This document shows, in pieces, positions 419 to 22,236 of a stretch of DNA of 64,000 nt. Numbering within the stretch: the stretch's first letter is position 1; the number at the start of each line of letters is the position of its first letter. The notes beneath the pieces were generated by a model that was given only the letters and a program-made list of their open reading frames with translations, was not told the DNA's origin and did no database searches. The stretch lies in contig JBDLJX010000002.1 in NCBI GenBank assembly GCA_039714155.1, forward strand, positions 1,286-65,285. The letters are read 5' to 3'. This stretch comes from Pseudomonadota bacterium (GTDB lineage: Bacteria > Pseudomonadota > Gammaproteobacteria > UBA9214). A program made the translations under genes and the position numbers.

Positions 419-874
419 ATGTTTGTTTCTGCACATGCGCGGGCAAGGGCGCGGCGTTACGCCATGCAGGCCCTCTACCAGTGGGACCTCTCCGGCGTCG
501 AGCTGGCCGAGATCCAGCGCCAGTTTGCCGAGGCGGAAGACTTTAGCCGCGCCGACAAGGACTATTTTGTTGAACTGCTGAAGACGATACCCGCGCAACG
601 CGAGTCTATCGACCGGCATCTCGGTGAATTCCTTGACCGGCCCATGCAGCAGGTCGATCCGGTCGAGCGCGCCATCCTGCGAATCGCGACCTACGAGTTG
701 CTGAATCGTGACGATGTTCCGTACCGTGTAGTTATCAACGAGGCCATCACCCTGACGAAGAAATTTGGCGCCGAACAGAGCCATGCCTTTGTGAATGGTG
801 TACTCGACAAGCTGGCGCACAAGCTGCGGGCTGACGAATGTACCGGCAAGCCCCGGCAGGCCAACGGTCTCTGA
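419..874 (+). CDS. nusB: transcription antitermination factor NusB
   Basis: 151 aa with ARRxAxQALYQW and ILRIATYELL motifs typical of NusB. Conserved ribH-nusB-thiL order. Confidence 0.9.
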   Translation: MFVSAHARARARRYAMQALYQWDLSGVELAEIQRQFAEAEDFSRADKDYFVELLKTIPAQRESIDRHLGEFLDRPMQQVDPVERAILRIATYELLNRDDVPYRVVINEAITLTKKFGAEQSHAFVNGVLDKLAHKLRADECTGKPRQANGL

Positions 875-904
875 TCATCCTGCACCTGGTTCCGGTCATA
901 TCAC

Positions 905-1882
905 ATGGCCCTGTCTGAATTCGAACTTATCCAGCGCTACTTTGATTATCAGCCCGCTGCGGGCAGTCGTGATGATGTTGTGCTGGGCATTGGTGATGAT
1001 GCAGCGATTCTTGCGGTGCCTGATGATCGCGACCTGGTGGTCTGCATGGATACCCTGGTCACCGGTGTGCATTTTCCTGAATCCGTTACAGCCGATGCCA
1101 TTGGCCACAAGGCCCTGGCCGTCAACCTCAGTGATCTTGCGGCAATGGGTGCGGAACCGGCATGGTTTACCCTGTCGTTGACATTGCCGGATGCAGACAG
1201 TCAGTGGCTGGAATTATTTGCGCAAGGCCTGTTTGCACTGGCTGACCGCTACCACGTGCAACTCGTCGGTGGCGATGTCACGCGCGGTCCGTTGAATATC
1301 ACCGTGCAGGCGCACGGACTGGTACCAAAAGGACGGGCGCTCAAACGCAGCGGCGCTGCTGTCGGTGATCGTATCTATGTCACGGGCACACTCGGTGATG
1401 CCGGGTTGGCGCTACAGCAGGGTTCGACAGCATCGGCAGGATTACGCCAGCGACTGGATTATCCGGAACCACGCATCGACGCCGGTCTTGCGTTGCGTGG
1501 CCTGGTATCGGCGTGCATAGATATTTCCGATGGCCTGCTGGCCGACCTCGGTCATTTGCTGGCGGCGGATGGCCTGGGAGCCATATTGCAGGTCGACGAT
1601 CTGCCGCGTTCGCAGGACTTCCTTGCGACCATGGAGACACTCGGCGATTCCGGGAATCTGTCTTACAATGTTCCGCTAAGTGCCGGTGATGATTATGAAT
1701 TGTGTTTCACCGTGCCGCCCGGACAGGGTGCGGAACTGGAGTCGGCCCTGGCTGCTTTGCCGGGGAGTTGTACTGCCATTGGCGTCATCGAGCAAGGCGG
1801 TGGACTACGCTGCCAACGACAGGATGGCTCGATCTGGCAACCCGCGGCAAACGGTTACCAGCACTTCAGGGCTAAAATATGA
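905..1882 (+). CDS. thiL: thiamine-monophosphate kinase
   Basis: 325 aa starting FELIQRYF, with GDDAA and the AIR-synthase-like fold signature. Its ATGA start/stop overlaps pgpA. Confidence 0.9.
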   Translation: MALSEFELIQRYFDYQPAAGSRDDVVLGIGDDAAILAVPDDRDLVVCMDTLVTGVHFPESVTADAIGHKALAVNLSDLAAMGAEPAWFTLSLTLPDADSQWLELFAQGLFALADRYHVQLVGGDVTRGPLNITVQAHGLVPKGRALKRSGAAVGDRIYVTGTLGDAGLALQQGSTASAGLRQRLDYPEPRIDAGLALRGLVSACIDISDGLLADLGHLLAADGLGAILQVDDLPRSQDFLATMETLGDSGNLSYNVPLSAGDDYELCFTVPPGQGAELESALAALPGSCTAIGVIEQGGGLRCQRQDGSIWQPAANGYQHFRAKI

Positions 1883-2370
1883 CTGAGCGCGTCGCGGCAC
1901 GTCATTTACTGAACCCGTCCTGCTTCGTTGCGCTTGGCTTCGGCAGTGGGCTGGTACCGGTTGCGCCGGGTACCGCCGGCACGCTGGCTGCGATTCCGGT
2001 TTACCTGCTGCTGCAGGATCTCAACTTGAACGCCTACCTGGTTATTGTGGTTGCCATGTTCCTGGGCGGCATCCTGGTGTGCCATTACACCGCGGATCGA
2101 CTGGGTGTGCATGACCATCCTGCCATTGTCTGGGACGAGATCGTCGGTTACCTGGTCACCATGGTGGCGGCGCCAGCGGGATGGCAATGGATTGTTGCCG
2201 GTTTTGTATTGTTCCGATTGTGGGTAACAGGCGATTTCACGGCGGCGGCAGTTCGTATTTATCGGTATCGTTATAGTAGTGGGCGCCTGTGTCCAGCCAC
2301 TCGGCGATCAGTCGCAGTTCTGCCGGCGTCAGCATGCCCTTGTGGAAGGACAGGTCCTTGTTGGTCGTGA
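1879..2370 (+). CDS. pgpA: phosphatidylglycerophosphatase A; true 3' end uncertain, C-terminal ~45 aa non-homologous
   Basis: The N-terminal 115 aa match PgpA (GFGSGLVPVAPGTAGTLAAIP, GVHDHPAIVWDEIVGY, WQWIVAGFVLFRL). After FRL the conserved FDIxKPWPI...GGxGIMxDD tail is absent, and the frame runs 130 nt into the convergent 963-aa gene. Confidence 0.7.
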   Translation: MTERVAARHLLNPSCFVALGFGSGLVPVAPGTAGTLAAIPVYLLLQDLNLNAYLVIVVAMFLGGILVCHYTADRLGVHDHPAIVWDEIVGYLVTMVAAPAGWQWIVAGFVLFRLWVTGDFTAAAVRIYRYRYSSGRLCPATRRSVAVLPASACPCGRTGPCWS

Positions 2371-5128
2371 CTACCGCCTCGACTTCATAGATATCGTCGT
2401 CGGTATCGTCATCAAACAACCGGAAAAAGCGGGCACTCGGAATCGCCCCGCGGGCACTCATCAGGCGCCGGGTAATGCAAATGCCGTCCAGCGGTTCAAC
2501 CGAGAGGTCGCCTTCGATGCCATTCGGACAATCCGTAGCGGGATCTGATACCTGAATCCATTCACCATTCTCGTTCATCACGTAGTAATCGGTTTCAAAC
2601 AGCTGCACATAGGAGGTGACCTCCCCCGGGTTCCACGGATCAGGATCGCCACTCAACTCGAATTTGCCGTCACCGCCCTTGGGGCAGCTGTTCTGGGGGG
2701 TATTGTCGGCTTTGTCATGGCAACTGGTGCAGGACATGCCCCCCGCCTGCGGGCGGCAGGCATCCCAGATCGGCTGGATATGCTCCAGGTAGTTGATGGT
2801 GACCCTGCAGTTGCTGGTCCAGCTGTCCAGGCATAGCGGATCGTTTACCGGTGCGGGGGTCGTCAGATCGCCGTGGCTGTACACGAAAGGCTGGGCCAGT
2901 GTGCCGATGAAGGGATTGGTCCAGTAGTCTTCATAGACCACGTCGCCCGTGCCATTGGGTATGGTACCGAGCATGAATGCAAGGGCTTCCGCCATGGTAT
3001 CCCCGGCTGCGATGGCAATGATCTCTGGATTCGCATTCGGGAATGGCCCGGCTCCCGGCGCGCCCGGGTTGGCCGCGGCGGTCTCGATGTCCGTTCGTGC
3101 ATGCGGGATATCGTTGCCCGGGTCGTGGCAGCCGTGGCATTCACGCAGTTCACCTTCCTCCAGCAGCAGGGTGTGGGGATGGTCTGTCAGATAATTGTAG
3201 TTGTAGCCAGGCTCGGCGATCAGGTCCACGCGCTTGCCGTACTTGTTGACCACCTCGAAGGTGAAGTGGATATCATGCGGCACCTGGGCCAGGGCAGACC
3301 CGTCCGGCTCGACTGTGCCGTAAGACAGGATGTCATGCAGCTCCCGGTTACCGGAACCCAGGATCGGACGCAATCCCATCTGCGGCCCGCTGCCATCGGT
3401 GGGGTTGAGCACCGGGCTGTCCAGTATGGCCTGTTCCAGTTCACTGGGCATAAAGCGTCTGGTGAAGACGCGAATAAAACGTTCCGAACGATCGTCCGGC
3501 ACGGTGAGATAGGGATCACGCAGGGTCGTGATACCGCCATCCGGCTCGGCCATGTCCTGGCTGTCCAAATCGTAGACACTGAGAATATGGAAGGCACCAA
3601 AGCCCTCGTCCAGCAGGAAGTTTGCCTTCGGACTCTGATAGACACGCGCATTCTCGTTGTATTTGCCGATCACGATATCGGTATACAGGGCATGGCTGTG
3701 CCCCTTGACCACCGGAAGCCGGGTGTTTTCGTGCGGGTCGATCGTCCAGATCCCGTATTGTGGCGCACGCAAAGCGTCCGTGGTGGAAAAGCCCTCACAC
3801 ACGGCGCTGATCTCTCCTGACTGGGTGAGACACTGTGCCCAGCTCGCCAGCAGGCGACCGCTGCCATCACGATAGGGGAATACGGCGCTGTACCATCCGC
3901 TGGGCGAAACCTGGTCGGGATAGAAATTGACCAGGCCCGGTGTCATCGATTGTTCCGCCTCCCCGCTGACGGAATCATCGATGGGCTTGCCGACGGCATA
4001 GAAATTCTGGCTGTTGATCTTGACCACATCGCCGCCGTAAACCGGGTTGTAGATATGCCGCATAATGGTGATCAGGTTACCGTCGCGCATGGGGATCGGA
4101 TCCATATAGTGGATGAAGGATGCGTCGGTAACCTCTTCATTGATACTGCCGAAGTAGCGATGCAGGTTTCCGCCACTGGGTGCAATCCGGTACAGGCTAA
4201 GGATGTCCTGGATGAAAATACGGGTATCAGTCGTCTCGCCGGCAACCGAGCCGCCGCACTTGTCATCGGTGGTCCATGTCTTGGGATCATCCAGTCCGGG
4301 AGGAAATCCATTTCCGTTTCCGTGCCCGAAACCACCGCCGTGCGGATGGGTACTGAAATCCGGGTCATCGATGTTTTCTTCCGTACAGTCGGTCAGGACT
4401 TCGTACTCGCGACCCCAGCGAATAAACACGATCTGCCCGTCATTCATCGTGTTCGGCTCAATGTCATGATAGGCACCAAAGGTGATCTGAAACAGTTCGC
4501 TGCCATCCGGCTCCATGATATGCAGCAGCGAGGCCGGCTCGGCGAAATCGCCAATGTACTCCCGGCTGTCCGCCAGCCGGTAATCCCCGGTGGCGACCTG
4601 GCGGTCCGAAGAGAAGACGATGCGACCGTCATTCGTGTAGGCCGGGTTGGTGTCCTGACCTGTGTTGGCAAGTTCGTCATCCGCAAAAAACCTGCGAATC
4701 TCTCCGGTAGAAAAGTTGTACTCGTAGATATTCCAGTTGCTGTGGTGCGTATTGCCCTCCGGCCCGTGGGCAGCAAAGGCGATACGTTCGCCATCGGGCG
4801 AAACCGTGAGGTCCTTGACGTCATAGCTGCCACCGCCGAAATAGCCGGAGAGGATGTCCTTCTCATCAGAGGAAAGGGCAACCCTGTCACGCACAAACAA
4901 CCTGGCGCCAGGATTGAACTGATATGGCGAGCGTGGATCCAGAACCGGGCGGTCGTCCACAGAAGTCGTTTCCCCCATTTCCGGAAAGTCACGCACAATG
5001 TAGGCAAAGGGACTGTCCTGCAGTACGCCTTCCTCTCCGGTCAATCCTTCCTGCTGGCATGCGGCTACTGCGATAACCATCACTGTGACAAAAAAATGCA
5101 CTGTACATATTTTGAGTAGAGCATTCAT
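2237..5128 (-). CDS. 963-aa lipoprotein with PD40/TolB-like beta-propeller repeats and two c-type haem-binding motifs (CXXCH); function unknown
   Basis: AGGAGG sits 5 nt before the ATG. The signal peptide has a lipobox (MVIAVAAC). PD40-like blades are present (DLTVSPDGERIAFAA, NPAYTNDGRIVFSSDR, IMEPDGSELFQITFG, NTMNDGQIVFIRW). Two CXXCH motifs are present (RECHGCHDP and MSCTSCHDK). The C-terminus (IQPIWDACR...CTSCH...ELRLIAEWLDTGAHY) resembles Planctomycete-type cytochrome c domains. Confidence 0.6.
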   Translation of the reverse strand: MNALLKICTVHFFVTVMVIAVAACQQEGLTGEEGVLQDSPFAYIVRDFPEMGETTSVDDRPVLDPRSPYQFNPGARLFVRDRVALSSDEKDILSGYFGGGSYDVKDLTVSPDGERIAFAAHGPEGNTHHSNWNIYEYNFSTGEIRRFFADDELANTGQDTNPAYTNDGRIVFSSDRQVATGDYRLADSREYIGDFAEPASLLHIMEPDGSELFQITFGAYHDIEPNTMNDGQIVFIRWGREYEVLTDCTEENIDDPDFSTHPHGGGFGHGNGNGFPPGLDDPKTWTTDDKCGGSVAGETTDTRIFIQDILSLYRIAPSGGNLHRYFGSINEEVTDASFIHYMDPIPMRDGNLITIMRHIYNPVYGGDVVKINSQNFYAVGKPIDDSVSGEAEQSMTPGLVNFYPDQVSPSGWYSAVFPYRDGSGRLLASWAQCLTQSGEISAVCEGFSTTDALRAPQYGIWTIDPHENTRLPVVKGHSHALYTDIVIGKYNENARVYQSPKANFLLDEGFGAFHILSVYDLDSQDMAEPDGGITTLRDPYLTVPDDRSERFIRVFTRRFMPSELEQAILDSPVLNPTDGSGPQMGLRPILGSGNRELHDILSYGTVEPDGSALAQVPHDIHFTFEVVNKYGKRVDLIAEPGYNYNYLTDHPHTLLLEEGELRECHGCHDPGNDIPHARTDIETAAANPGAPGAGPFPNANPEIIAIAAGDTMAEALAFMLGTIPNGTGDVVYEDYWTNPFIGTLAQPFVYSHGDLTTPAPVNDPLCLDSWTSNCRVTINYLEHIQPIWDACRPQAGGMSCTSCHDKADNTPQNSCPKGGDGKFELSGDPDPWNPGEVTSYVQLFETDYYVMNENGEWIQVSDPATDCPNGIEGDLSVEPLDGICITRRLMSARGAIPSARFFRLFDDDTDDDIYEVEAVVTTNKDLSFHKGMLTPAELRLIAEWLDTGAHYYNDTDKYELPPP

Positions 5129-5236
5129 TTCATGCCTCCTGCTTCCTGGACTGGCCTGCCTTTACCTTTCATCGTCATGCTGTCTCAACTGATCAACCCC
5201 GGGTTTGCCGGTATTCCGCTATGCGGCTTGGCGAGA

Positions 5237-6211
5237 TCAGCCGGGGAGAAAGTCAAATTTGTAGTTGACCGGTGTCGCCAGGACATCATCGGGTCCGAAG
5301 TCGATCACACGGATTCGTGTCAGCAGCTTTTGCTCCAGCTTGATGCTCTCGAGCTCACTACTGATGAGTTCGATACTGGAAATCGCGCCATTGGGCTCGA
5401 TCACGATATGAAAGACATATTTGCCCCTGACTTCCGGATCCTTGCGCAACGCGCGGTTGTAGATGGCGTAAATCGCTCCCTTGTGCTGCTCGAAAACACG
5501 ACGTATGGACTCCATGTCCCTTCCACCGGCTACCGACGAATGATGTTTACCGCCACCGCTACCGCGCGCACCGCCCGAGCCGTCGCCGGTACCACCACCG
5601 CCGGTTCCGTCGCCGGCACCGAGTGGACTCGCCACCGAAACACCGCTGCGACCGGCCAGTTGCGTACTGCTGCCATGGCTGCTAATGGCGGAGGAGTTGA
5701 TTCCTCCGCTGGTCTTGACCGCCGTTTCGCGCCCAAGCACCGAGCGCCTGATCTTTGCTGCTGCACCGGTAGTAACGTTGGTGTTCCTGGCCTGAAGCTT
5801 GGCGACATCCAGCGAACTTCGCAGCGATTGCAGCTGATTGGAAAATGCCGCCACACCCATAGATGCGACTTTCTTCCTGGCCGGTGCTTTCTTTATCTGC
5901 TTCGCCGGGGGAGCCTCTTTTTTTACAGCTTTACTGGGCTCCACAGGCTTCTCGATTTCTACCGGCTCCGGTTTCGGCGCCGGGGGCGGTGCAGGCAACT
6001 TCTGCTGCAAAATAATCTTTGCCAGTGCTGGCGGCACGATTTCGGCCTGCTCCCGCTCAATTTCCGGTAACGGGAGCCAGGGGAAGACGATGGCCAGCAA
6101 CATAAACAGAAGAAGCAGGCGCTTGAGTATTTTCCTGAAGCGCACGTCTTCCTTGCGTGTGGCCTCCCAGGGAAGAACAAAATCGTTCAATAGCATTGCT
6201 GTCGTAGTCAT
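5237..6211 (-). CDS. tonB: TonB-family energy transducer
   Basis: N-terminal TM helix, Pro/Lys-rich spacer (PAPPPAPKPEPVEIEKPVEP) and a C-terminal TonB_C-like domain (GKYVFHIVIEPNGAISSIELI). It lies directly downstream of exbB-exbD-exbD. Confidence 0.8.
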   Translation of the reverse strand: MTTTAMLLNDFVLPWEATRKEDVRFRKILKRLLLLFMLLAIVFPWLPLPEIEREQAEIVPPALAKIILQQKLPAPPPAPKPEPVEIEKPVEPSKAVKKEAPPAKQIKKAPARKKVASMGVAAFSNQLQSLRSSLDVAKLQARNTNVTTGAAAKIRRSVLGRETAVKTSGGINSSAISSHGSSTQLAGRSGVSVASPLGAGDGTGGGGTGDGSGGARGSGGGKHHSSVAGGRDMESIRRVFEQHKGAIYAIYNRALRKDPEVRGKYVFHIVIEPNGAISSIELISSELESIKLEQKLLTRIRVIDFGPDDVLATPVNYKFDFLPG

Positions 6212-6223: not shown

Positions 6224-6727
6224 CTATGCGCCGGCGTTGGCCACCTGGGTCACCGCCATGGACAAATCCCGGTAGTTCGATTTTGCGCAGGTCACCATGA
6301 CACGCTTGAGTATTTCATACGGGATCGTATGGTCACCCAGGATGGTGATTGCCCTGCCACTCGCCTTTTCTTCCGCGGTCAACTGTGCGCGTTTCGAGGC
6401 CAGGTAGTTGAGCTCTTTCGCAAGCCCCGGGATTACACCGTCACTTTTTATTACCTCATCCATGGTTGCGACCGGCCGGCCGTCAACGATGATGTCGGAT
6501 TCGGTCACCATGACGGTGATGGTCGACTCGGGTTTTTGCTCGGCGACGGAATCAGGGAGCTTGATGTGCTTGCTCACTTTCAGTATCTCGTTATCACCGG
6601 AGTTGATGAGCAGAAAGAACACGAGAATCGTGAATATATCCATGAGCGAAACCAGATTGAGTTTCGCAGGCCTGAGAAAGCGCCTGTGATTCTGCTGCAT
6701 GCGTTCTGCAATACTGGACCTGTTCAT
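6224..6727 (-). CDS. exbD: ExbD/TolR-family biopolymer transport protein (second copy)
   Basis: 167 aa with a single TM (LMDIFTILVFFLLI) and a periplasmic ExbD domain. It overlaps the upstream exbD by 4 nt. Confidence 0.85.
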   Translation of the reverse strand: MNRSSIAERMQQNHRRFLRPAKLNLVSLMDIFTILVFFLLINSGDNEILKVSKHIKLPDSVAEQKPESTITVMVTESDIIVDGRPVATMDEVIKSDGVIPGLAKELNYLASKRAQLTAEEKASGRAITILGDHTIPYEILKRVMVTCAKSNYRDLSMAVTQVANAGA

Positions 6728-7233
6728 GAGTCGCCTCTCTTGGGTGGAGCATCACCCAGCGAAATTTCCGGAAACAGTTCAACTTCGACGGCACTGGTGG
6801 CAACAACCGTCCTGAACCCCCGCACGGTATCCATGGTGGACACCAGCGATTGATAGCTGACATCTGCCTCGGAGAGCAAAAGAACGTCAGACTTGTCCTT
6901 GACTTCCTTCTTGATTTCCCGCAGCACCAGGGACAGCGTCTCGTAGTCCAGTTTCTCACTGTCTTCCATATCCCTGGGCTCGATGCTCTTTATCAACACC
7001 CCGCTCGGGAAATACACCTCCAGGCCTGACTTGCGCAGTACCACCTCCAGCTGCCGGTTTTTCTCGGCACTCTGTGTCACCGCACCTGTCAGGTTCGGAA
7101 GATTGAGCCGTAGTATCGTGATCTGACTGAATACCATGCTCATCAACAGCACCGGGACCAGTACGATCATGAGATTCATAAAAGGCGTGATATTAAGATC
7201 CGCCTCCTCAAGTTCTCGTCGCTTTATGAACAT
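6724..7233 (-). CDS. exbD: ExbD/TolR-family biopolymer transport protein (first copy)
   Basis: 169 aa. NITPFMNLMIVLVPVLLM is the typical ExbD N-terminal TM. It lies 14 nt downstream of exbB. Confidence 0.85.
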   Translation of the reverse strand: MFIKRRELEEADLNITPFMNLMIVLVPVLLMSMVFSQITILRLNLPNLTGAVTQSAEKNRQLEVVLRKSGLEVYFPSGVLIKSIEPRDMEDSEKLDYETLSLVLREIKKEVKDKSDVLLLSEADVSYQSLVSTMDTVRGFRTVVATSAVEVELFPEISLGDAPPKRGDS

Positions 7234-7247: not shown

Positions 7248-7919
7248 TCAGATCTGTCCGTCAGCCGTCCGTACGGCAAAGGATTTGGGATGCCCCTTTA
7301 GAATCGCGTTCATGAACTTCACACCGGCCATTTCAATGCTGTCCACGATTTCGACCGTCTTGTTCTGCAGGACCGAGTGAAACAGAAGCAGCGGTATTGC
7401 AGCCATCAGGCCGAATGCCGTAGTGTTCATCGCTACAGAAATGGACTCGGACAAAAGCGTGGCCTTGTCGGCGGGATCGGCATGCGCCACAGCAGTGAAG
7501 GCAGCGATCAGGCCGATAATGGTGCCGAGCAGGCCGAGCAGTGTGGCGATGTTGGCCAGGATTGACAGGTAATTTGTACGTTTTGACAATCGCGGGACTG
7601 TTTCCAGAATACCCTCCTGCATGGCGGACTGGATATCATCCCTGCGCGGAGACGTCTGCATGGTCTCGACTGCAGCCAGAACAATGCGCGCGATCGCTGA
7701 CTTGCTGTTGTGAGAGTATTGCTGCGCCGTGTCGTATTTCCTGCCACTCAGCATCGGCAACAGTTCGGAGTAGGCCTTCTGGTTGGCGTACAGGGATTTT
7801 CTCAGAAAGTACCAGCGTTCGATTGCAATCGCGACCCCGATGGCCAGCACCAGCGCAATCGGGTACATAAAGGTACCGCCTGACTGAAAAAATGACGTTA
7901 TCGATGTGTAGGTATCCAT
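7248..7919 (-). CDS. exbB: MotA/TolQ/ExbB proton-channel protein
   Basis: 223 aa with three TM helices and a conserved TolQ/ExbB C-terminal region (LLGLLGTIIGLIAAF...NTTAFGLMAAIPLLLFH). Confidence 0.85.
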   Translation of the reverse strand: MDTYTSITSFFQSGGTFMYPIALVLAIGVAIAIERWYFLRKSLYANQKAYSELLPMLSGRKYDTAQQYSHNSKSAIARIVLAAVETMQTSPRRDDIQSAMQEGILETVPRLSKRTNYLSILANIATLLGLLGTIIGLIAAFTAVAHADPADKATLLSESISVAMNTTAFGLMAAIPLLLFHSVLQNKTVEIVDSIEMAGVKFMNAILKGHPKSFAVRTADGQI

Positions 7920-7995: not shown

Positions 7996-8277
7996 TCATT
8001 CCCCCCCGGCAGGTCCTTCCAGAGAGAGTTCGTCGTAAAACTGAATACTTCTGGCCAGCACATCCCGGTCTACCGGGTCCAGCACATTCCCTGATATCGA
8101 TTTGATTGGCCGATACAGCTTGGATGGCCCTTCCGGCGGTTTCCATGGCGTGATGTAACTGACCGACGGCTGCTCCTTGTCACCGACGAAGGTGCTTTCC
8201 AGGTCGATTCGCTCCTGGGACCCTGCGCACAGGGGCGCAAGGAGGCAGAGTGTGGCTGTAATCGTTCGTACTGACAT
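7996..8277 (-). CDS. small secreted hypothetical protein (93 aa)
   Basis: Signal peptide (TATLCLLAPLCAGS). It sits between the TPR lipoprotein and exbB on the same strand. No recognisable domain. Confidence 0.4.
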   Translation of the reverse strand: MSVRTITATLCLLAPLCAGSQERIDLESTFVGDKEQPSVSYITPWKPPEGPSKLYRPIKSISGNVLDPVDRDVLARSIQFYDELSLEGPAGGE

Positions 8278-8349: not shown

Positions 8350-9186
8350 CTAGTCCGCACCCTTGGTTGCGGCCACCGTGACGGCATCGTCGGATTCTGC
8401 CGCTGTTGTCTTGGCAGCCTTCGCCGGCGGAACATCAATAAAACTGCCATCAATGCCGGTTCTGTGTTTCACCTCGACCAGCCACTTGTGGACTTTCTCG
8501 TCTTTCTCTCCGGTAAGAAAGTAATAGGCCTCGTAATGCTTTTGCGCCGCCTCGGCCTTGTTCAGATACAGGTCATATAGAACTGCAAGATTCAGATGCG
8601 CCTCAGGGAAATCCCTCCAGACTCGCAATGCATCGAGATAGGTATGCTGGGCGTCGGAAAAATATCCCTGTCTGCGCTGCACCAGACCAAGCGCGATATA
8701 GGCATTGACGTTGTTCCTGTTTACACTGATCGCCTTTTTATAGCGCTCAATGGCAACCGTATATTTTTCCTGTTTTTCGGCTATTGCGCCCAGTTTTACC
8801 CAGGGACCGGCAAGCGAGGGATATTTTTCAGTCAGCATCCTGAATTTTGCGCTCGCTCCTTTAAGGTCTCCTGCCTGGAGCCGGTCGCTGGCTACAACGA
8901 ATATTGACTTTGCCTCACCCGGTACGGACGCATCTCCGGTGGTATACGGGTTCGGTATTGGCACGTAGGGAACTTTCTCGCCAGCAGGGTTGTAGACCTG
9001 TCGGGGCAGGGGGGCCTCAGCAGGCGAGACGATTGGAGCCTGGCGACTGGTAACGGCATCCGCTCCATCGGCCGGGCCTTTTGCCTGCGGTTTAACCGGC
9101 ACGACAGAACTGCATCCCGAAACCAGAACGGAGACCAGCATGCTTGCTGCCAGCGTGGGACGGAACTTACTTGATACCGTAGCCAT
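8350..9186 (-). CDS. TPR-repeat lipoprotein (278 aa)
   Basis: Lipobox LVSGC. C-terminal TPR repeats (YKKAISVNRNNVNAYIALGLV..., HTYLDALRVWRDFPEAHLNLAVLY). Confidence 0.7.
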   Translation of the reverse strand: MATVSSKFRPTLAASMLVSVLVSGCSSVVPVKPQAKGPADGADAVTSRQAPIVSPAEAPLPRQVYNPAGEKVPYVPIPNPYTTGDASVPGEAKSIFVVASDRLQAGDLKGASAKFRMLTEKYPSLAGPWVKLGAIAEKQEKYTVAIERYKKAISVNRNNVNAYIALGLVQRRQGYFSDAQHTYLDALRVWRDFPEAHLNLAVLYDLYLNKAEAAQKHYEAYYFLTGEKDEKVHKWLVEVKHRTGIDGSFIDVPPAKAAKTTAAESDDAVTVAATKGAD

Positions 9187-12013
9187 AACTCACCTGCATT
9201 TCCTGTTTGTCAAAACGGGCGGGTGACAGCTTCGCCATGGCGGCAAAACTCTTGTCTACCCAGTGATTGAAATTCCCGTCCCATGACTGCCTGATATTGT
9301 TCTCGTGTATTTCAATGGCCAGTTCCTCAAACGGAATGGCCTGTTCTTCCAGCAGCAGCTCATATTGCTGCAGTTCGGTTGTCGACAATCCTTTCGGGCG
9401 CGGCGAATCCATCAATTCCCTGGCAAAACTGGCGTACAGCTCGCCTATGCTGTAGGAGGCTCTGGCCGAGAATTCAAAAATTCCGTAACCGGCAGATTCT
9501 TCATAACGCTGCATTGCGTTTTTGAGTTTCTCGCTTTTCCTGGGCATCCACTTCTCGAGTGGCATACGCAATTTCACACGCTTAAACTCCCATCTCCAGT
9601 AGTCACCGTATTCAGCATTTGCCCAGGCAGCCAGCCACCGGGAACGATCGGTGCTGCGGCTGCCGGCCTTGCTGTCGCCATCGATAACCCGGCGTAACCA
9701 GTACAGATGCCGGGTCATGTCCTCGGTCTTCTTGTAGAGATGCGCCAGGTGGTAGCGTGCTTCCATCCGATTATCAAACGGTTCCTCGTAGGCATGTGCC
9801 CAGCGTTTGAAGTGATCAATGGCAATGGAGTACTCACCCGCCTTTTCGTACAACCCTGCGGCGATAAACAGGGCATCCCGCCTGGCGTTCTCGTCAGCAT
9901 CGTTGCGATAGATTGTCATGTATTCCCCTGCAGCCATCTTCCACTGCTCGTCCTGTTCGTAGGCATAGGCGATCTTCTGTGCAACAGTCTTGCCGAGTTC
10001 GTGATCGGGAAATTTGCTGCGCAACTCAAGCAGTTCCACCAGCGCCGGTTTCCATTGCTCCAGGGTCATCATGTGCGTTGCTGCATCGTATTGTGCCGCC
10101 ACGCGGGCACTTGACATGGGTGCGATGGTTTTGATTCGCAGAAAATGCTCGATAGCCTGATTCAGATCGTTGGCCTGCAATGCGGCATCACCCTGCTTGT
10201 AGGCGGTTGTAGCCACGCGCTCCAGGACGACCTCGTATTCCTTGTCCCCCCTGGGAATATATTTCAGTTGATTCTGGTATCCGGATTCGGCCTCCGCGTA
10301 ATTACCAAGCTCATACTGACTGTGGGCAATGACGCCATAGGCTGTCTTGTGCAATTTGCTGTCAATATCGCCGGTCCGGGATATCACACTGGTCGCCACC
10401 TCCAGTGCTTTCTCGTAGCGTTTCAGGGCAAACAGCTCTTCAGAGGCCTTGGCCAGAACCGCACCGGAACGCTTATCGCCCCTGTAGGTATTTACAAATT
10501 TCAGCTGGCTGTCCACAGTACGCGCGCGCCACTCGCTGAGTTGCGGTGAATCCTCTCCATGTGCCTTCTGCAGATCCTCTGCGTGCTTGTGGAAAGCGAT
10601 AATTGCGGCATAGCCGGCATCCGCGCCGTACTTGCCTTGCCCGTGGTGGTATGCGGTTTTCTCGTAACCCTCGATCGCAGCCACATAGTCACCGCCGTCG
10701 AACAGGGCTTCTGCCCGCATATAGGTCATCTCCTGGACTTGTGGATCCTCAGGGAAGGTTTCCATGAATTGCCGGTAGTATTCTGCGGCCTTGAGGAAGG
10801 AATCCCTCTCCTTCAGGGCGAGGGTGGCAAGCTTGTCACTATCCGCATCGGAGTCTGGGAGTTGCTTTTTCAGTTTTTGCCCGGTGCCGTGGTAATGACG
10901 CGCCAGCTCGTCAATATACGTCTTCAGATTGGGGATGACCTTCGCCTTTACATCACCTCCCTTGGTTTTCCAGAACTCGCTATGAATGCCGTAGTTCTGC
11001 ACGTAACGCTCTTTCTCCGGCAGGACCTGAGAGGAGAATTCTCCATCGATGTAAGCCCGGATCATCTCCGAGTGCATCTCGGGAGCCCGATCCGAGGTGG
11101 GATTCTGCAGTACAAAGGCACGATAGGAACCGGCCGAGTCCTCGTAACGCTCCTTTTCCAGGAAGTGTTTGCCCAGCCCCGAATACAGCAGCCAGGTGTA
11201 TTTCTTGCTTTGTGGGCGGTCTGCATAGAAATTGTTGATCTTTTCAGAGCCGCCCCCATAGGCAAGGCTCAGACTCATAATGCGCAGGGTGTCGTCGACA
11301 AGTGACCTTTCAACCTTGTCGAGTCGTTCGATCTTGCCGTCCCCGGGAACCAGCCGGTCGAGGACCTCGGAAAACGATGCCAGTCCACCATCGTAGTCTC
11401 CCAGCTTGTAGCGCGACCAGCCGAGCAGGTAATAGGAATTGTTGAGAAAGGCCGACTCCACACCCAGTGTGATTACAGATTGATAGGCAACCACGGCCTT
11501 TTCATATTGCCCGTCGCCGAAATGAATATCGCCCTTGCGGAAATACGCTTCACCAAGATGTGGCGATACCGGATATTGCTCGATAAAGGTATCCAGCGTT
11601 GACAGCGCCAGTATATCCTTGCCGTCGAGGTCATATGCCTTCGCAAGCTGATACAGGGATTCCGCATTGTCCGGATCACCGGGATACTTGCTGATCACCT
11701 CGTTGTAGGACTTGATCGCGGGTGCAAAATAACCGCCTTCCGGCGGATTGACATCAATCAATTGCCTGTAGTCGCCCTCCAGCATGTAGACACCGGCGAT
11801 ACGCCGTTCGATCTGCTCCCTGAGCTCCCTGTCTTCCACTATTTCCAGCAGCGACCGGTAGTCGTCCCTGACGTCCTTGTGACTGACCCTGGGCAGCGGC
11901 ACATCGTCAAGCGGTGCATCATCGGTGTTCAGTTTACCGATGGTCGTATTCTTCGATACAAGACCACACCCGGTGAGGAGCAGCATCGGGACTATCAGCG
12001 CTTTACGCAGCAT
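9167..12013 (-). CDS. large TPR-repeat lipoprotein (~948 aa from MLRKALIV start)
   Basis: Lipobox LLLTGCG. About 20 TPR-like repeats are spread over the whole length (recurrent AxxxY/AxxxF-LG spacing). The ORF is open to 12097; the start was chosen at the Met preceding the signal peptide. Confidence 0.7.
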   Translation of the reverse strand: MLRKALIVPMLLLTGCGLVSKNTTIGKLNTDDAPLDDVPLPRVSHKDVRDDYRSLLEIVEDRELREQIERRIAGVYMLEGDYRQLIDVNPPEGGYFAPAIKSYNEVISKYPGDPDNAESLYQLAKAYDLDGKDILALSTLDTFIEQYPVSPHLGEAYFRKGDIHFGDGQYEKAVVAYQSVITLGVESAFLNNSYYLLGWSRYKLGDYDGGLASFSEVLDRLVPGDGKIERLDKVERSLVDDTLRIMSLSLAYGGGSEKINNFYADRPQSKKYTWLLYSGLGKHFLEKERYEDSAGSYRAFVLQNPTSDRAPEMHSEMIRAYIDGEFSSQVLPEKERYVQNYGIHSEFWKTKGGDVKAKVIPNLKTYIDELARHYHGTGQKLKKQLPDSDADSDKLATLALKERDSFLKAAEYYRQFMETFPEDPQVQEMTYMRAEALFDGGDYVAAIEGYEKTAYHHGQGKYGADAGYAAIIAFHKHAEDLQKAHGEDSPQLSEWRARTVDSQLKFVNTYRGDKRSGAVLAKASEELFALKRYEKALEVATSVISRTGDIDSKLHKTAYGVIAHSQYELGNYAEAESGYQNQLKYIPRGDKEYEVVLERVATTAYKQGDAALQANDLNQAIEHFLRIKTIAPMSSARVAAQYDAATHMMTLEQWKPALVELLELRSKFPDHELGKTVAQKIAYAYEQDEQWKMAAGEYMTIYRNDADENARRDALFIAAGLYEKAGEYSIAIDHFKRWAHAYEEPFDNRMEARYHLAHLYKKTEDMTRHLYWLRRVIDGDSKAGSRSTDRSRWLAAWANAEYGDYWRWEFKRVKLRMPLEKWMPRKSEKLKNAMQRYEESAGYGIFEFSARASYSIGELYASFARELMDSPRPKGLSTTELQQYELLLEEQAIPFEELAIEIHENNIRQSWDGNFNHWVDKSFAAMAKLSPARFDKQEMQVSYGYGIK

Positions 12014-13811
12014 CGCCGTCTCCTTGTGTGGCGTGCTGCTGCTCATCTGACGGTGCGTCCGGGAGTCTGGCATCCGGCTCATCGTCCTGCCCGTCATCGG
12101 CAGGAGCTTCGAGGTCAGCCAGTGATTTATCCAGAATGCGCACTTTCGCCAGGTGTGACTGAACCCGGTAATACTTCAGCCGCTCCTCATGGATACCAAG
12201 TTCCGTATTGACCAGTTCGAGCATCACGCTCTCGACCTTGTCGATGAGCTGGTTGGTCTTCTCAAGCTCTTTTTCAAGGACATCCATATTGCTGTCTACG
12301 AGCGAGGCGTAGTGTTCGGTATTCAGCGACAAGCCGGGGGGCGTCTCAAGCTGCTCCGTCATCAATCCGGCACTGTTGATTTCGAACTGGATGTCATTTA
12401 GCAGCCACTGCACCCGTTCCCGGTCTTCGGGATTCAGTGCGGCCGTCAGTTGTGTCAGTGTGGAATAGTCACTCTGGAAGTCAGCCAGTTGTTCAGAACC
12501 GGTATTGATCTGCTGCGTCCGGTCCCTGCTGCCCAGTGATTTCGAGCGTGCAGTAAGGATGACGTCAAAGTCATCCTGCTTCCGTTTCCAGTTGTTCAGG
12601 TTATTGCGGATTGCATACAGATCACGCAAGTCCTTCAGTACAGACTGAAAGCTGTGGTCCGACATCAGTTCCAGCAGAAACGGGGAAAGTGAATTGATCG
12701 ATACGGACGGCGCTGTACCGAACCAGTCGCTTTCGCCAAGCATCTCATCGAGATTGTGGACGAATAACTCAAGCATATCTGCATCCTTGAGCGCTTCCTT
12801 TGCGCTACCCAGTTGCTCGAGTGCGCTTCCGTAGCGGTTATAGGCACTGATGAAGCCCTCGGCAGCACGGCCCGTCAGGCCAAGCTTTTCATATACGTGT
12901 GGTACCAGCAGCACTGCTTCCTGGACTTCCGGGACTGCCATCGATCGCTGCTGGAGAACTCCGAGCGGGGCAAGCGCCACTCGGTAAGAACCACTGTTGA
13001 CAGATGACCATCCGGACCCCAGCAGCGCACGGTTCGAGAAAACACCGGCCGTGCTGACCTGATTAATATGGTCATAGGCATTGTCATTGTCCTGCCTGTC
13101 TGCGTACAGGTAGGCAATCGCCATATGCGAACGATCCGCCAGCCGGTCCAGCTCACTGGTACCATCAGCATATGAGGCAGCCTTCTCCAGATTGCTGACT
13201 GCGCGCGTGTAGTCTTTCTGTTTGCCGAGCGCCACGCCCAGATTGAAAAAAAGAAAGGGCGCATAGGGACTTTTTTTACTGAAACTACCCGATATCTTCC
13301 AGGCTTCATCAAAATAGCCGAGCTTTATGTTGATCAACGCGGCCAGATACAGGTATTCCTGGTCGATCTCGCGTGGCATGGTTCCGCGAACATTAGACAG
13401 CGTCGCGGCTGCATGCTCGTTATCCCCCCTGAGGTAAAGCATCTTGGCCAGGAAAAACCAAGCCCGGTTCTGTACTTCCTCAGCGGTATTTGCGACGATC
13501 AAACTGTCGAAAATATCCTGCGCCTGCTCGTCAAGGCCATAGGACAGGCTGACACCGCCCTTGAGTAACTCCGGATAATCACCGTGATTCTGGATACCGC
13601 CTCGCTCATACGCGTACTCGTACTCAACGAGGGTTTCAAAATACTTTTGCTGATAGAATTCAAAAAGGATTGCACCGTATTTCAGGTCTTTTACCTCGTG
13701 CCCGATGGCAACCTGGCTACACTCCAGCAGGAATACTGCCGCCAGTAAAGGCGCGGCAACCATCCGGGTGCAACCAGCATAATTACCAGGTAAAAGTGTT
13801 TTCATGTTCAT
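12003..13811 (-). CDS. secreted TPR / coiled-coil protein with acidic C-terminal tail (602 aa)
   Basis: N-terminal signal-like hydrophobic segment and TPR-like repeats in the first ~330 aa. A coiled-coil region follows (LKDLRDLYAIRNNLNNWKRKQDD...) and then a D/E-rich tail. Contiguous with flanking genes. Confidence 0.55.
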   Translation of the reverse strand: MNMKTLLPGNYAGCTRMVAAPLLAAVFLLECSQVAIGHEVKDLKYGAILFEFYQQKYFETLVEYEYAYERGGIQNHGDYPELLKGGVSLSYGLDEQAQDIFDSLIVANTAEEVQNRAWFFLAKMLYLRGDNEHAAATLSNVRGTMPREIDQEYLYLAALINIKLGYFDEAWKISGSFSKKSPYAPFLFFNLGVALGKQKDYTRAVSNLEKAASYADGTSELDRLADRSHMAIAYLYADRQDNDNAYDHINQVSTAGVFSNRALLGSGWSSVNSGSYRVALAPLGVLQQRSMAVPEVQEAVLLVPHVYEKLGLTGRAAEGFISAYNRYGSALEQLGSAKEALKDADMLELFVHNLDEMLGESDWFGTAPSVSINSLSPFLLELMSDHSFQSVLKDLRDLYAIRNNLNNWKRKQDDFDVILTARSKSLGSRDRTQQINTGSEQLADFQSDYSTLTQLTAALNPEDRERVQWLLNDIQFEINSAGLMTEQLETPPGLSLNTEHYASLVDSNMDVLEKELEKTNQLIDKVESVMLELVNTELGIHEERLKYYRVQSHLAKVRILDKSLADLEAPADDGQDDEPDARLPDAPSDEQQHATQGDGDAA

Positions 13812-14447
13812 CTACCACTGCTTGACAGAGTATTCCGGCTGCAGCTTCATCGATGAATCGGAAATATTCAGTTCTACATACTTGGGGCCACTCTCCTTGT
13901 TGATATTCAGTGTGGTGCCGCGTTTATATTCCCTGCCGCTGGGACCCATGCCCGTAAAAAATGCGGACAAGGTGTGTTCGCCTACGCTCAAATTGGCCAT
14001 ATGCAGCTTGTGAATGCCGCCTTTGGACAGTGCCACCAGCTCCTTGCCGGAATAGATATGGCTGGCAACAACCTTTCCGTCAAGCTTGAGCTTGACTGAT
14101 TCCAGCGTAAAAAACTTGCCCACGTCCAGCGACAGGAACACGTTGACCTGGGTGTTGGCAGGAAACAGCAGATCTTCTTCCAGCACGCGCAGGTTCTTGT
14201 TCAATGCGATGACAGACAGCTTCAGTTCCTGAATATCCTTTGACAGGACATTCACGGATTCCTGCGCCTTCACCCTGCCCTGCGTGGCCTCAAGTGTGCG
14301 TTCCCCGTCTGTTGCCGTACCATCGTCCGAAACGACTGCACCGGAAACATCAGCCTCATCGACATCGGCATAAGGACTGGCCGGCATCGTGGACAATGCA
14401 ACAGCCAGGACAGCAAGAACGTTTCGCCGTATTGAATCGAGTTTCAT
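13812..14447 (-). CDS. secreted hypothetical protein (211 aa); first gene of the array
   Basis: Signal peptide (VLAVLAVALSTMPASPYA), a short coiled-coil, then a beta-rich C-terminus. Its stop abuts the start of the 602-aa gene (0 nt gap). Confidence 0.5.
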   Translation of the reverse strand: MKLDSIRRNVLAVLAVALSTMPASPYADVDEADVSGAVVSDDGTATDGERTLEATQGRVKAQESVNVLSKDIQELKLSVIALNKNLRVLEEDLLFPANTQVNVFLSLDVGKFFTLESVKLKLDGKVVASHIYSGKELVALSKGGIHKLHMANLSVGEHTLSAFFTGMGPSGREYKRGTTLNINKESGPKYVELNISDSSMKLQPEYSVKQW

Positions 14448-14449
14448 AA

Positions 14450-14828
14450 AACGCCTCTAACAGATAGTCCGTTTATCATCGCCTGATTACAACAAAACCT
14501 GACATGGAATATGCTTTTCAACAACATGTTCATTTCAATTGTGCGATCAAGCTCACAAATTGAACTGACTTGGTGAATACTGTACCTGCATCACAGTGCA
14601 CTACGTTGGAAGGCAATTAGTATTACATTGCATATCGTTTTCGAAGTGCACGTATACCCTCGGGTCTTTGACTGGAATAAATACTCAAGATAAGTTGTTC
14701 GTTACCGTAATAAAGAGAGAATCCTAAAGCATTAAGACTTGACCGGCGCAAGCGGGATGGCATATGGCAGCGATTGCCTTACCGCGCTCTGCAATTCAAA
14801 TTAACGTGAATAATGTGACAGCTTTAAC
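14450..14828. promoter_or_regulatory. AT-rich divergent intergenic region between the TPR/Ton array (-) and the OM beta-barrel pair (+)
   Basis: A 380-bp stretch of markedly lower GC than the flanks, placed between two divergently transcribed gene sets. No specific operator identified. Confidence 0.4.
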
Positions 14829-15629
14829 ATGATACGACTTTGGATAAGGTGCAATTTGCATGATGTGAGACACATTCTATGTGCATTGCTGTTGCTGGGC
14901 TGCCTGCCATCACAGGCCTTATGTTTTGACCTGTTCAATAATGACAGCCCGGATGTGAATGATTCCGTTTTTCTGGAAGTCACAGAACCATATATTGACA
15001 TGCACACCGGACCGGGCCGTGGTTACCCTGTATTCAACGTAGTCGAACAGGGCGAAACAATCGAGATACTCAAGCGGAAAACCAACTGGTACAAGGTAAG
15101 AAGCGCAGATGAAAAGACCGGTTGGACCAAAGCCTCACAGCTGGCACACACACTCAAGCCCACCGGAGTACCGGTAGACTTGCCGGAAATCACTCATGGT
15201 GATTACCTGAAGTCCAGCTGGCGCGTTGGCTTTGGCGCAGGACAGGTGGAGGGCTCGAACACCTTCAGCATCTCCGCTGGATACCGACCCTTAAGCTGGG
15301 CAGGTGCGGAACTCGAGTGGGGGAAGATTTTCGACAATTCGGTGACCAGCGACTTTTACGGCGCCAACCTCCTTGTGGAGCCTGTGCCGGACTGGATCGT
15401 CACACCATTCTTCACAGCCGGTGCAGGAATGTTTTCGTTTGATAGTCGGCACAAGGTTCTGGTCGATGACACAGGAACCTCCAGATATTTCAGTTTTGGT
15501 GCAGGAGCCAATTACTACATTGGACGCAACATTGTAATGCGGGGTGAATACCGCTGGTATTCGGTATCAACAGACGACGACAGTGTGGGGTTAAATTCAT
15601 GGAGAATCGGTTTAAGCACGTTCTTTTAG
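14829..15629 (+). CDS. outer-membrane beta-barrel protein with N-terminal bacterial SH3 (SH3b) domain
   Basis: Signal peptide, then an SH3_3-like segment (YIDMHTGPGRGYPVFNVVEQGETIEILKRKTNWYKVRSADEKTGWTKASQL). The C-terminal ~170 aa have alternating hydrophobic beta-strands ending ...RIGLSTFF (terminal Phe). Confidence 0.65.
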   Translation: MIRLWIRCNLHDVRHILCALLLLGCLPSQALCFDLFNNDSPDVNDSVFLEVTEPYIDMHTGPGRGYPVFNVVEQGETIEILKRKTNWYKVRSADEKTGWTKASQLAHTLKPTGVPVDLPEITHGDYLKSSWRVGFGAGQVEGSNTFSISAGYRPLSWAGAELEWGKIFDNSVTSDFYGANLLVEPVPDWIVTPFFTAGAGMFSFDSRHKVLVDDTGTSRYFSFGAGANYYIGRNIVMRGEYRWYSVSTDDDSVGLNSWRIGLSTFF

Positions 15630-16318
15630 GGCACAGAGATCGTCCCTGTTTTGCAGCAACTGTTGGCAAGTCACTTGTCATACTATCCCTGTGCTGGACA
15701 GGCCTGACGGTATTCGGGTCTGGTGCAATAGCAGCTGAGGCTGGTGATAAAACCGGAGCTGTTCAGGTTATTACTCCCGAAGTGAAACCCCGCGAGGTGA
15801 CTGAAGCCGATATCGATGACGAATCCTTCGAAATCGGTGTATTTGTCGGAATCATCAATATTGACAATTTCAGCAGCGAGCCATTGTACGGTATCAATGC
15901 GTCGTATTACGCTACCGAAGACTTCTTTCTACAGCTGAATTACGCTGTTTCCAGCGCTGATCTCACATCATTTGAAGAACTGAGCGGTGAAAATGTCCGG
16001 CTGTTGACTGATTCGGAACGCGACTATACGTATTACAACGCCCTGGTTGGCTACAATATCTTTCCAGGCGAGGTGTTCATGACGTCAAAGTTGACCTTCA
16101 ACTCGGCTCTCTATCTGGTGGGTGGCGTGGGTAACACCGATTTCGGTGGTGAAGACAATTTCACCATTACACTGGGAACAGGCTACCGTATTGTCCTGCG
16201 TGACTGGCTGACCTGGCATATCGACTTTCGCGATCATATTTTCAAGTCAGACATCATAAAAGAGGACCAGACCACCCATAATATGGAATTATCTACCGGT
16301 CTGTCGTTGTTTTTCTAG
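15599..16318 (+). CDS. outer-membrane beta-barrel protein (paralogous partner; start uncertain)
   Basis: Signal-like segment LVILSLCWTGLTVFGSGAIAA. Amphipathic beta-strands end ...LSTGLSLFF. It overlaps the upstream barrel gene by ~30 nt; the true start may be an internal or non-ATG codon. Confidence 0.6.
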   Translation: MENRFKHVLLGHRDRPCFAATVGKSLVILSLCWTGLTVFGSGAIAAEAGDKTGAVQVITPEVKPREVTEADIDDESFEIGVFVGIINIDNFSSEPLYGINASYYATEDFFLQLNYAVSSADLTSFEELSGENVRLLTDSERDYTYYNALVGYNIFPGEVFMTSKLTFNSALYLVGGVGNTDFGGEDNFTITLGTGYRIVLRDWLTWHIDFRDHIFKSDIIKEDQTTHNMELSTGLSLFF

Positions 16319-22150: not shown

Positions 22151-22236
22151 CCTTATTAGACACGGTCTAAGTTATTAGGGGCTGGGGTCCGGATTGATAT
22201 ACAAGTTGATATATATGACACCATGAGGATTGAATT

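Follow-up and report, generated by a model that had tools for sequence, protein, structure and literature searches.

The 64,000-nucleotide stretch of contig JBDLJX010000002.1 (assembly GCA_039714155.1; Gammaproteobacteria, UBA9214) that was analysed here, referred to below as the window, encodes near its left end a 963-residue lipoprotein with two c-type haem motifs, directly downstream of an operon of Tol-like motor and tetratricopeptide repeat (TPR) genes. This protein, its relationship to the α subunit of hydrazine synthase (HzsA), and its linkage to the operon are the subject of this analysis. The gene and the parts of its product are as follows.

2237–5128, minus strand: open reading frame (ORF) for the HzsA-like di-haem c lipoprotein of 963 amino acids; the identical NCBI protein from a metagenome-assembled genome (MAG) is annotated as hypothetical protein ABFS22_00785
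5057–5128, minus strand: signal peptide with lipobox VAAC (amino acids 1–24), with predicted lipidation of Cys24
3569–5011, minus strand: TolB/PD40-type β-propeller (about amino acids 40–520), probably six-bladed
3029–3511, minus strand: middle domain, homologous to the haem α-I domain of HzsA and aligning with residues 501–562 of Protein Data Bank (PDB) chain 5c2v_A, ending at CSGCH
2240–2851, minus strand: C-terminal domain, homologous to the haem α-II domain of HzsA according to NCBIfam and the PDB profile alignment

An AGGAGG Shine–Dalgarno sequence ends 6 nt 5′ of the ATG. The N-terminus of the 963-residue protein (MNALLKICTVHFFVTVMVIAVAAC) bears the lipobox VAAC, and Cys24 is retained in 32 of 32 homologues in the family alignment, which reaches down to about 30% identity. 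The lipobox signal peptide of this ORF, already recognized in a preliminary description that was made from the nucleotide sequence and its translated ORFs without database searches, is thereby confirmed. In Escherichia coli, Asp at position +2 after the lipidated Cys bears on whether a lipoprotein is destined for the inner or the outer membrane. The window protein lacks Asp at this position, and only two of the 32 homologues have it, which points to anchoring in the outer membrane.

Within the propeller, a single PD40 repeat passes the Pfam threshold (amino acids 155–181, E = 2e-8), a strict regular expression for the blade signature matches three times (at amino acids 162, 225, and 344; 0.46 matches are expected in shuffled sequences), and two looser signatures can be seen by eye (SPDGERIAF at about 109 and FPYRDGSGRLL at about 417). 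The earlier estimate of at least four PD40-type blades was fair. Eight polar residues of the propeller (D103, D159, R176, Q177, H203, H221, D222, and R237) are invariant in the 32-sequence alignment. In the AlphaFold2 (AF2) model of the window protein (mean predicted local distance difference test score, pLDDT, 77; predicted template modelling score, pTM, 0.74), a conserved N-terminal strand (DPVVVDxPIAYVxR / DSPFAYIVRD), considered as a possible TonB-box-like motif, is modelled with confidence at amino acids 41–47 (pLDDT about 88). The model contains no haems, and the number of blades and the ligation of haem 1 (see below) are inferred.

When a profile of the 32 homologues was compared with all PDB sequences, HzsA of Kuenenia stuttgartiensis (kuste2861; PDB 5C2V, chain A) was the top match (E = 1.2e-12) and TolB the next (E about 0.007). 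Foldseek with the AF2 model likewise ranked 5c2v_A first, over the whole chain (E = 1.5e-23), and TolB second, over the propeller (about 1e-10). The profile alignment consists of four collinear segments of 5c2v_A that correspond to the propeller, the middle domain up to CSGCH, the second CXXCH, and the C-terminal helix; the third pairs IQPILDAKCAMCH of HzsA with IQPIW...CTSCH of the window protein, and the fourth pairs EWIDLGAQW with EWLDTGAHY. The two proteins have the same order of a six-bladed-type propeller followed by middle and C-terminal CXXCH domains, and have the motifs IQPI...CxxCH and EW(L/I)DxGA in common. Identity is about 14%, and HzsA was reached only by the 32-sequence profile; single-sequence phmmer searches of the PDB with the whole protein and with its C-terminal 387 residues gave nothing useful. 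The alignments and the model together indicate that the protein is very probably a distant relative of HzsA throughout its three domains.

The preliminary description had considered the protein no obvious member of either the HzsA or the cd1 nitrite reductase family. The former statement does not hold, since both the profile search and Foldseek placed HzsA first among PDB entries; the latter does, and cd1 nitrite reductase (an eight-bladed haem d1 propeller, Pfam Cytochrom_D1, with a cytochrome c domain) was rejected as an identity, with no match to the family. The assignment of the C-terminal region to Planctomycete-type cytochrome c domains was also abandoned: no PSCyt family matched over the C-terminal CXXCH at E ≤ 0.1. 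IQPIW...CxxCH resembles the PSCyt hallmark, and the motif is also found in HzsA.

The family is already present in databases, by way of the HZS_alpha domain and the name 'HzsA-related protein', but is uncharacterised. A sister clade, about 30% identical to the window protein, includes a homologue (P0078) that passes the Pfam model HZS_alpha (PF18582; 55.8 bits against a gathering threshold of 26.6) and a member that carries the above UniRef label, and precomputed PF18582 matches are listed for many homologues. The NCBIfam equivalog model hydrazine_alpha (NF052339) aligns amino acids 889–953 of the window protein with model positions 731–793 of 804 at 12.9 bits against a cut-off of 800; sister-clade members score 37–48 bits. 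No experimentally characterised protein was found among the top structural matches to HzsA in a recent survey (Hagglund et al., 2025; PMC12758564). In a genome scan, at least 576 species-level genomes proved to encode relatives, and an HMMER scan of 1.84 billion representatives (E ≤ 1e-30) found 825 clusters of relatives at 50% identity, so that the HzsA-like family is large, and the combination of a propeller with two haem sites is not the rarity it had been taken for. Widespread homologues with a known, unrelated function had been named beforehand as telling against a link to the neighbouring motor genes; the homologues do occur widely, yet no function is known for any of them, and the majority show linkage to the motor.

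The haem 1 motif (CHGCH; amino acids 664–668, nt 3125–3139) and the haem 2 motif (CTSCH; amino acids 800–804, nt 2717–2731), both noticed in the preliminary description, lie in the domains homologous to the two haem domains of HzsA, a cytochrome of solved structure. C664, C667, H668, C800, C803, and H804 are invariant in all 32 homologues, and 0.008 CXXCH motifs would be expected by chance from the composition. Among the best 80 loci of the genome scan, which are the basis of all counts over 80 given below, 76 encode two CXXCH motifs. In HzsA, haem α-II is ligated by two histidines, the distal ligand being αHis772 (Hagglund et al., 2025). The family-invariant His929 of the window protein (nt 2342–2344) aligns with His745 of the chain, which is αHis772 (5c2v_A chain numbering plus 27 gives crystal numbering, His560 of CSGCH being His587), and the NCBIfam model coordinates agree. 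Haem 2 therefore appears to keep both axial histidines of haem α-II (His804 and His929). At the other site of HzsA, αTyr591 ligates haem α-I, and αHis587 of the first CXXCH binds Zn together with αCys303, a residue that is not conserved even among all anammox bacteria (Hagglund et al., 2025). The equivalent of Tyr591 (His668 + 4) is Asn in the window protein and varies over the 32 aligned sequences without ever being Tyr, and the region around αCys303 did not align. As there is no conserved Tyr at this position, haem 1 most likely has ordinary His ligation. H650, H676, and R678, near haem 1, are both family-invariant and family-specific, and His676 is a candidate sixth ligand.

In its three-domain architecture and its two haem sites, the protein would fit a genuine hydrazine synthase α subunit with anammox-type chemistry. 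However, the score against the NCBIfam equivalog and the identity to HzsA are low, Tyr591 is not conserved, and neither a gene similar to HzsB or HzsC nor any other credible cytochrome ORF with CXXCH was found near the cluster in the 64-kb window. Because Tyr591 and the β and γ partners are absent, the protein is not to be regarded as a hydrazine synthase, an identity to which we give practically no weight. Unlike HzsA, it is a lipoprotein with invariant residues of its own (H650, H676, and R678), and its gene belongs to a Tol-like motor operon of Gammaproteobacteria rather than to an hzsCBA cluster. Non-anammox HzsA homologues of Planctomycetota and Desulfobacterota have been assigned to clades I–IV (Hagglund et al., 2025); these are likewise distant and lack Tyr591, and they have a canonical haem α-I pocket. 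They were picked for co-location with fused β–γ genes, whereas the window family has no β–γ partner and is linked to the operon described below. Clades II and III lack haem α-II and clade I lacks αHis772, whereas the window family keeps both. Gammaproteobacteria are not mentioned in that survey (Hagglund et al., 2025).

The operon upstream of the HzsA-like gene consists of the following genes, given from the gene nearest to it.

5237–6211, minus strand: GltG-like TolA/TonB-type transducer, 324 amino acids (NF033768, AgmX/PglI C-terminal; 56.8 bits against a cut-off of 40, E = 1.8e-15)
6224–6727, minus strand: AglS-like ExbD/TolR stator subunit (Pfam ExbD, E = 3e-12; position as in MXAN_6860 homologues)
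6724–7233, minus strand: AglQ-like ExbD/TolR stator subunit (Pfam ExbD, E = 8.8e-14; position as in MXAN_6861 homologues)
7248–7919, minus strand: AglR-like MotA/TolQ/ExbB proton channel (Pfam MotA_ExbB, E = 3.8e-28; best NCBIfam match TolQ)
7996–8277, minus strand: small protein of 93 amino acids, with no Pfam or NCBIfam match, kept in the close clade
8350–9186, minus strand: GltE-like TPR lipoprotein, 278 amino acids (TPR families; weak match to NF033758, gliding_GltE, E = 2e-8)
9167–12097, minus strand: GltD-like large TPR scaffold, 976 amino acids (TPR; YbgF/CpoB-type repeats, E = 6e-28; size and position as in MXAN_4870 homologues)
12003–13811, minus strand: GltC-like TPR protein, 602 amino acids (weak TPR; size and position as in MXAN_2541 homologues)
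13812–14447, minus strand: p211, 211 amino acids, at the start of the operon; neither Pfam nor NCBIfam gave a match

The Agl–Glt core was described as gltC, gltD, gltE, an additional small gene, aglR, aglQ, aglS, and gltG, and was reported for Hahella, Marinobacter, Saccharophagus, Cellvibrio, Shewanella, and Teredinibacter, with its function in Gammaproteobacteria stated to be unknown (Luciano et al., 2011). The order, sizes, and family matches of the window genes agree with the core of Hahella and Marinobacter in Table S3 of that study, and the clusters of Hahella and Marinobacter species are 40–66% identical to the window proteins, gene for gene; likeness to the Glt proteins of Myxococcus xanthus is by way of the published tables for related genera rather than by direct alignment. 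Judged by these sequence comparisons, the window operon is the Agl–Glt core, agreeing with the published descriptions in both gene content and gene order (Luciano et al., 2011; Wartel et al., 2013). The published core comprises seven proteins and the small extra gene; the HzsA-like gene, p211, and two outer-membrane barrels (see below) are outside its gene tables. Wherever Table S3 passes over locus tags, the gap lies between gltE and aglR, which indicates that the additional gene is the small ORF and not the HzsA-like gene. The core is widespread in marine Gammaproteobacteria; the gliding and spore-coat machines of Myxococcus have been proposed to descend from it, it has been considered as a possible 'basal transport machinery' (Wartel et al., 2013), and its authors regard the study of its function as a route towards the mechanism of motility. 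The p211 protein is 54–65% identical within the close clade and 37–56% in the sister clade, always adjoins gltC, and is the best-conserved marker of sister-clade loci in tblastn searches. The GltC-like and GltD-like ORFs overlap by 95 nt (12003–12097) if called from their first start codons; the true start of GltD probably lies further downstream.

The stop of gltG (5237) and the start of the HzsA-like gene, on the same strand, are separated by 108 nt, in which neither a terminator-like nor a promoter-like site was found. Strand and distance are as first described, but the upstream gene is not the tonB it was then called: its product is of the AgmX/PglI/GltG type, TonB-like only in a broad sense, with weak matches to GltG and GltJ besides NF033768 and with no Pfam match at E ≤ 0.1, and thus without TonB_C. 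The name has a basis, in that genes of the ExbB and ExbD families and a proline-rich TonB-like protein lie upstream and Joint Genome Institute (JGI) pipelines title the orthologues 'protein TonB' (the NCBI title of the identical protein is 'AgmX/PglI C-terminal domain-containing protein'). On this ground, the HzsA-like protein might be seen as serving a classical TonB–ExbB–ExbD uptake system as its periplasmic redox or sensor component. Such a role is nevertheless very improbable, given the type of the upstream protein, the two ExbD/TolR genes and three TPR proteins, the lack of an identifiable TonB-dependent receptor among the cluster genes scanned, and the gene-for-gene correspondence with the published Agl–Glt core. 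The broader proposal that the protein is functionally coupled to a neighbouring machine driven by the proton-motive force (pmf) is supported by its conserved synteny with the motor, described next, once the Ton system is replaced by the Agl–Glt core.

The linkage between the HzsA-like gene and the core is tolerant of rearrangement. All ten close orthologues (at least 60% identity; Hahella, Marinobacter, and MAGs) have the gene order of the window where the contig allows. In the four loci that were picked through GltG alone, an HzsA-like gene of 967–972 codons follows 36–118 nt downstream, encodes a protein that is 63–76% identical to the window protein and has both CXXCH motifs and the lipobox Cys, and is followed by genes that are unrelated among the four loci; the HzsA-like gene is therefore the conserved 3′ end of the block. 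In the sister clade (Marinobacter second copies, Kangiella, Pleionea, Steroidobacteraceae, Woeseiaceae, Cellvibrionaceae, Colwellia, Microbulbifer, and Thiodiazotropha), 28 of the 40 loci with full flanks have core genes within 10 kb. These take at least three arrangements: downstream on the same strand, upstream and divergent, and downstream and convergent. By a rough estimate rather than a calculation, one to three copies of the core in a genome of a few Mb would fall within this distance by chance in about 1% of cases. In Marinobacter, GltD is about 60% identical to the window GltD where it lies beside a window-type gene and about 32% where it lies beside a sister-type gene, which argues that the core and the HzsA-like gene have diverged together. 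Functional coupling of the HzsA-like protein to the core is thus probable. No literature linking HzsA-like proteins to Agl/Glt clusters was found in a search that covered part of the journals.

One further locus (L054, CAMAVY010000010.1), labelled 'MAG: Klebsiella pneumoniae', contains an HzsA-like gene together with weak matches to p211, GltC, and GltD, of the kind otherwise seen in marine and environmental Gammaproteobacteria; the contig has probably been misbinned or mislabelled in the public record.

Two genes for outer-membrane barrels accompany the block in the window.

14829–15629, plus strand, divergent from the operon: SH3 and outer-membrane β-barrel protein (Pfam SH3_3 and OMP_b-brl)
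15599–16318, plus strand, divergent from the operon: outer-membrane β-barrel protein (TIGR04565, OMP_myx_plus; E = 7.1e-49, 165.9 bits against a cut-off of 60)

Unbiased clustering of the ORFs of HzsA-like loci recovered the SH3–barrel family in 68 of the 80 loci and the second barrel family in 55, and in the sister clade both barrels usually lie directly downstream of the HzsA-like gene. Sister-clade loci also contain a divergent trio (a 533-residue protein, a Laminin_G_3 protein with two CXXCH motifs, and a PSD2/DUF1585 protein with one), and opposite to it the HzsA-like protein, the SH3–barrel protein, the second barrel, a thioredoxin, a DUF4266 protein, and a DUF3570 protein are encoded. 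This module is present in about 55–60 of 70 sister-clade loci (for example at 851–6176 on the minus strand and 9342–12579 on the plus strand of locus L002); its extra members (the trio, thioredoxin, DUF4266, and DUF3570) have no counterpart in the window. The Laminin_G protein is described as a lipoprotein with two CXXCH motifs and the DUF3570 protein as a barrel, and PDB searches with the Laminin_G_3 and PSD2 proteins gave no matches. With its five haem motifs and a possible dedicated thiol reductase, the module looks, from the motifs and domains encoded, like an outer-membrane redox assembly.

The homology to HzsA, the conserved haem motifs and ligands, the invariant lipobox, and the rearrangement-tolerant linkage to the core and the two barrels are established here. 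Localisation, physical contact with the motor, and a redox role are drawn from them by inference, and lead to the reading that we favour, with a probability of roughly 60%: the window gene encodes an HzsA-family lipoprotein that is the conserved last gene product of the gammaproteobacterial Agl–Glt core operon and a redox-active outer-membrane partner of a pmf-driven motor. In the published model of the Myxococcus Agl–Glt machine, AglR5QS–GltG is likened to TolQ5R2–TolA, and the outer-membrane module consists of barrels and a propeller lipoprotein. In a corresponding arrangement, the HzsA-like lipoprotein would be exported by Sec and anchored in the outer membrane on its periplasmic side, next to the pair of small β-barrels. 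Proton flow through the AglR5–AglQ/S stator would drive movement of GltG, whose TonB-like C-terminal domain would dock on the GltD/E/C TPR scaffold, which in turn would reach the outer-membrane module with the HzsA-like protein as the redox-active head of the machine. Haem 2 might be a bis-His electron-transfer haem, and haem 1, at the interface of propeller and middle domain, might serve as a further relay, or else as a site of catalysis or of small-molecule binding; these specific roles of the two haems are put forward tentatively and are doubtful. In the CglB/GltK–GltA–GltB module of Myxococcus gliding, a propeller outer-membrane lipoprotein is likewise accompanied by a pair of small outer-membrane barrels, to which the presumed location of the window protein corresponds, and the family name of the second window barrel is OMP_myx_plus. 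CglB, unlike the window protein, has a von Willebrand factor A (VWA) adhesin domain and no haem, and the likeness described here is one of architecture.

Several observations weigh against this assignment. The window protein itself matches Pfam HZS_alpha (PF18582) at amino acids 597–669, ending exactly at CHGCH, with E = 0.006 and 17.5 bits, below the gathering threshold. The loop of His676 has a pLDDT below 50 in the AF2 model. The converse search, starting from GltG, covers the window clade only, the GltG orthologues listed all being at least 60% identical, and 12 of the 40 sister-clade loci with full flanks have no core gene within 10 kb. The published tables give no HzsA-like gene for the Glt systems of myxobacteria or Bdellovibrio (Luciano et al., 2011), and the HzsA-like protein would at most be a component of the gammaproteobacterial type of core.

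The twelve sister-clade loci that lack the core would also be expected if the protein were a stand-alone periplasmic haem enzyme of a wider hydrazine-synthase-like family whose substrate is a small nitrogen compound or some other redox molecule, with a linkage that reflects shared regulation or envelope localisation only. It has been hypothesized that enzymes similar to hydrazine synthase form a broad family with alternative substrates (Suarez et al., 2023). In addition, haem α-I of HzsA is an active site, at the interface of propeller and middle domain, and many polar residues of the propeller are invariant in the window family; the two further CXXCH proteins and the thioredoxin of the sister clade look like a redox pathway. 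Such an enzyme nevertheless seems unlikely. The linkage to the core outlasts about 70% sequence divergence and several rearrangements, with the core genes diverging in step, window-clade genes follow gltG at 36–118 nt with no terminator-like site in the 108-nt gap of the window, and there is neither a β- or γ-like partner within the window nor a conserved Tyr591.

The partner of the motor might alternatively be an analogue of TolB, that is, a structural adaptor whose propeller would bind either the TolA-like GltG or the TPR scaffold and whose haems would be structural with no redox function. In tol–pal operons, tolB comes after tolA, and the HzsA-like gene follows the gene of the TolA-like protein in the same way. 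GltD has YbgF/CpoB-type repeats, and binding of GltG to GltD is likened to TolA–TolB binding in the published model. Compared with TolB of the Tol–Pal system, however, the window protein is lipidated, has about 440 extra residues with two haem sites, and has no Pal partner; the operon genes scanned did not include a pal-like one. The N-terminal domain of TolB is absent (274 of 397 TolB residues align), and the TolB model TIGR02800 gives 25 bits against a cut-off of 343. Both CXXCH motifs, His929, H650, H676, and R678 are absolutely conserved across about 30% identity, which exceeds what a structural role would usually require and so disfavours a purely structural role of the haems. An adaptor of this kind is decidedly improbable.

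A bolder version of the favoured redox-active partner is that the gammaproteobacterial core is as a whole a pmf-motor-coupled outer-membrane redox machine. The HzsA-like protein and the two barrels would then form a porin–cytochrome-type module that the TolQRA-like motor might position, gate, or energise, and the sister clade would extend this module with the Laminin_G lipoprotein (two CXXCH motifs), the PSD2 protein (one CXXCH motif), the thioredoxin, the DUF4266 protein, and the DUF3570 barrel. This reading is speculative, and we consider it rather improbable. Such a machine would supply a function for a system that has been unexplained since 2011, and would suggest that anammox HzsA arose from haem lipoproteins of an envelope machine.

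With the HzsA-like gene, p211, and the two outer-membrane barrels, the published core is extended, and an HzsA-family di-haem protein is recast as the lipoprotein partner of a Tol-like motor. The core gains constant companions, the di-haem lipoprotein and the two barrels, and with them a testable handle, redox chemistry at the outer membrane, in genera that are open to genetic work, Marinobacter among them. Whether hydrazine synthase arose de novo or by recruiting periplasmic haem proteins that already existed is under debate; a large non-anammox family that keeps both haem sites and the equivalent of His772 broadens the pool of candidate ancestors of HzsA. Should the linkage be merely regulatory, what remains is one more HZS_alpha-domain protein, uncharacterised and otherwise ordinary.

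At its 3′ end, the HzsA-like gene overlaps a pgpA ORF on the opposite strand (1879–2370, plus strand), the last 50 or so codons of which match only the antisense strand of HzsA-like genes elsewhere; nucleotide homology to the closest MAG (L003) ends at about 2218. The pgpA product presumably lacks its family-typical C-terminus after about amino acid 113 ('...GFVLFRLW'). An assembly artefact at the 3′ end of the HzsA-like gene was rejected, the C-terminus of its product being family-conserved to the last residues; it is pgpA that is truncated at its 3′ end, at the edge of the Glt/HzsA block, where either a real rearrangement or a join in the MAG assembly connects ribH–nusB–thiL–pgpA to the operon. 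On the other side of the block, GC content is 0.48–0.49 at 14000–18000 and 0.53–0.59 elsewhere; this stretch contains the two barrel genes, a NERD-domain ORF (17539–18141), and an ORF for 219 amino acids with weak similarity to a gene that, in Hahella and Marinobacter, lies downstream of the HzsA-like one. About 17 kb from the cluster, a putative 146-residue ORF (22235–22675, minus strand) contains one CXXCH and is covered almost entirely by an equally putative 139-residue ORF on the other strand (22237–22656, plus strand). Further to the right, an Rfam group II intron D1-D4-1 match (57044–57125, plus strand; 62.6 bits, E = 7e-9), with no adjoining reverse-transcriptase ORF seen, may be an intron fragment or an ORF-less intron, and lies beside an ORF for a sigma-54 response regulator (57160–58521, minus strand).

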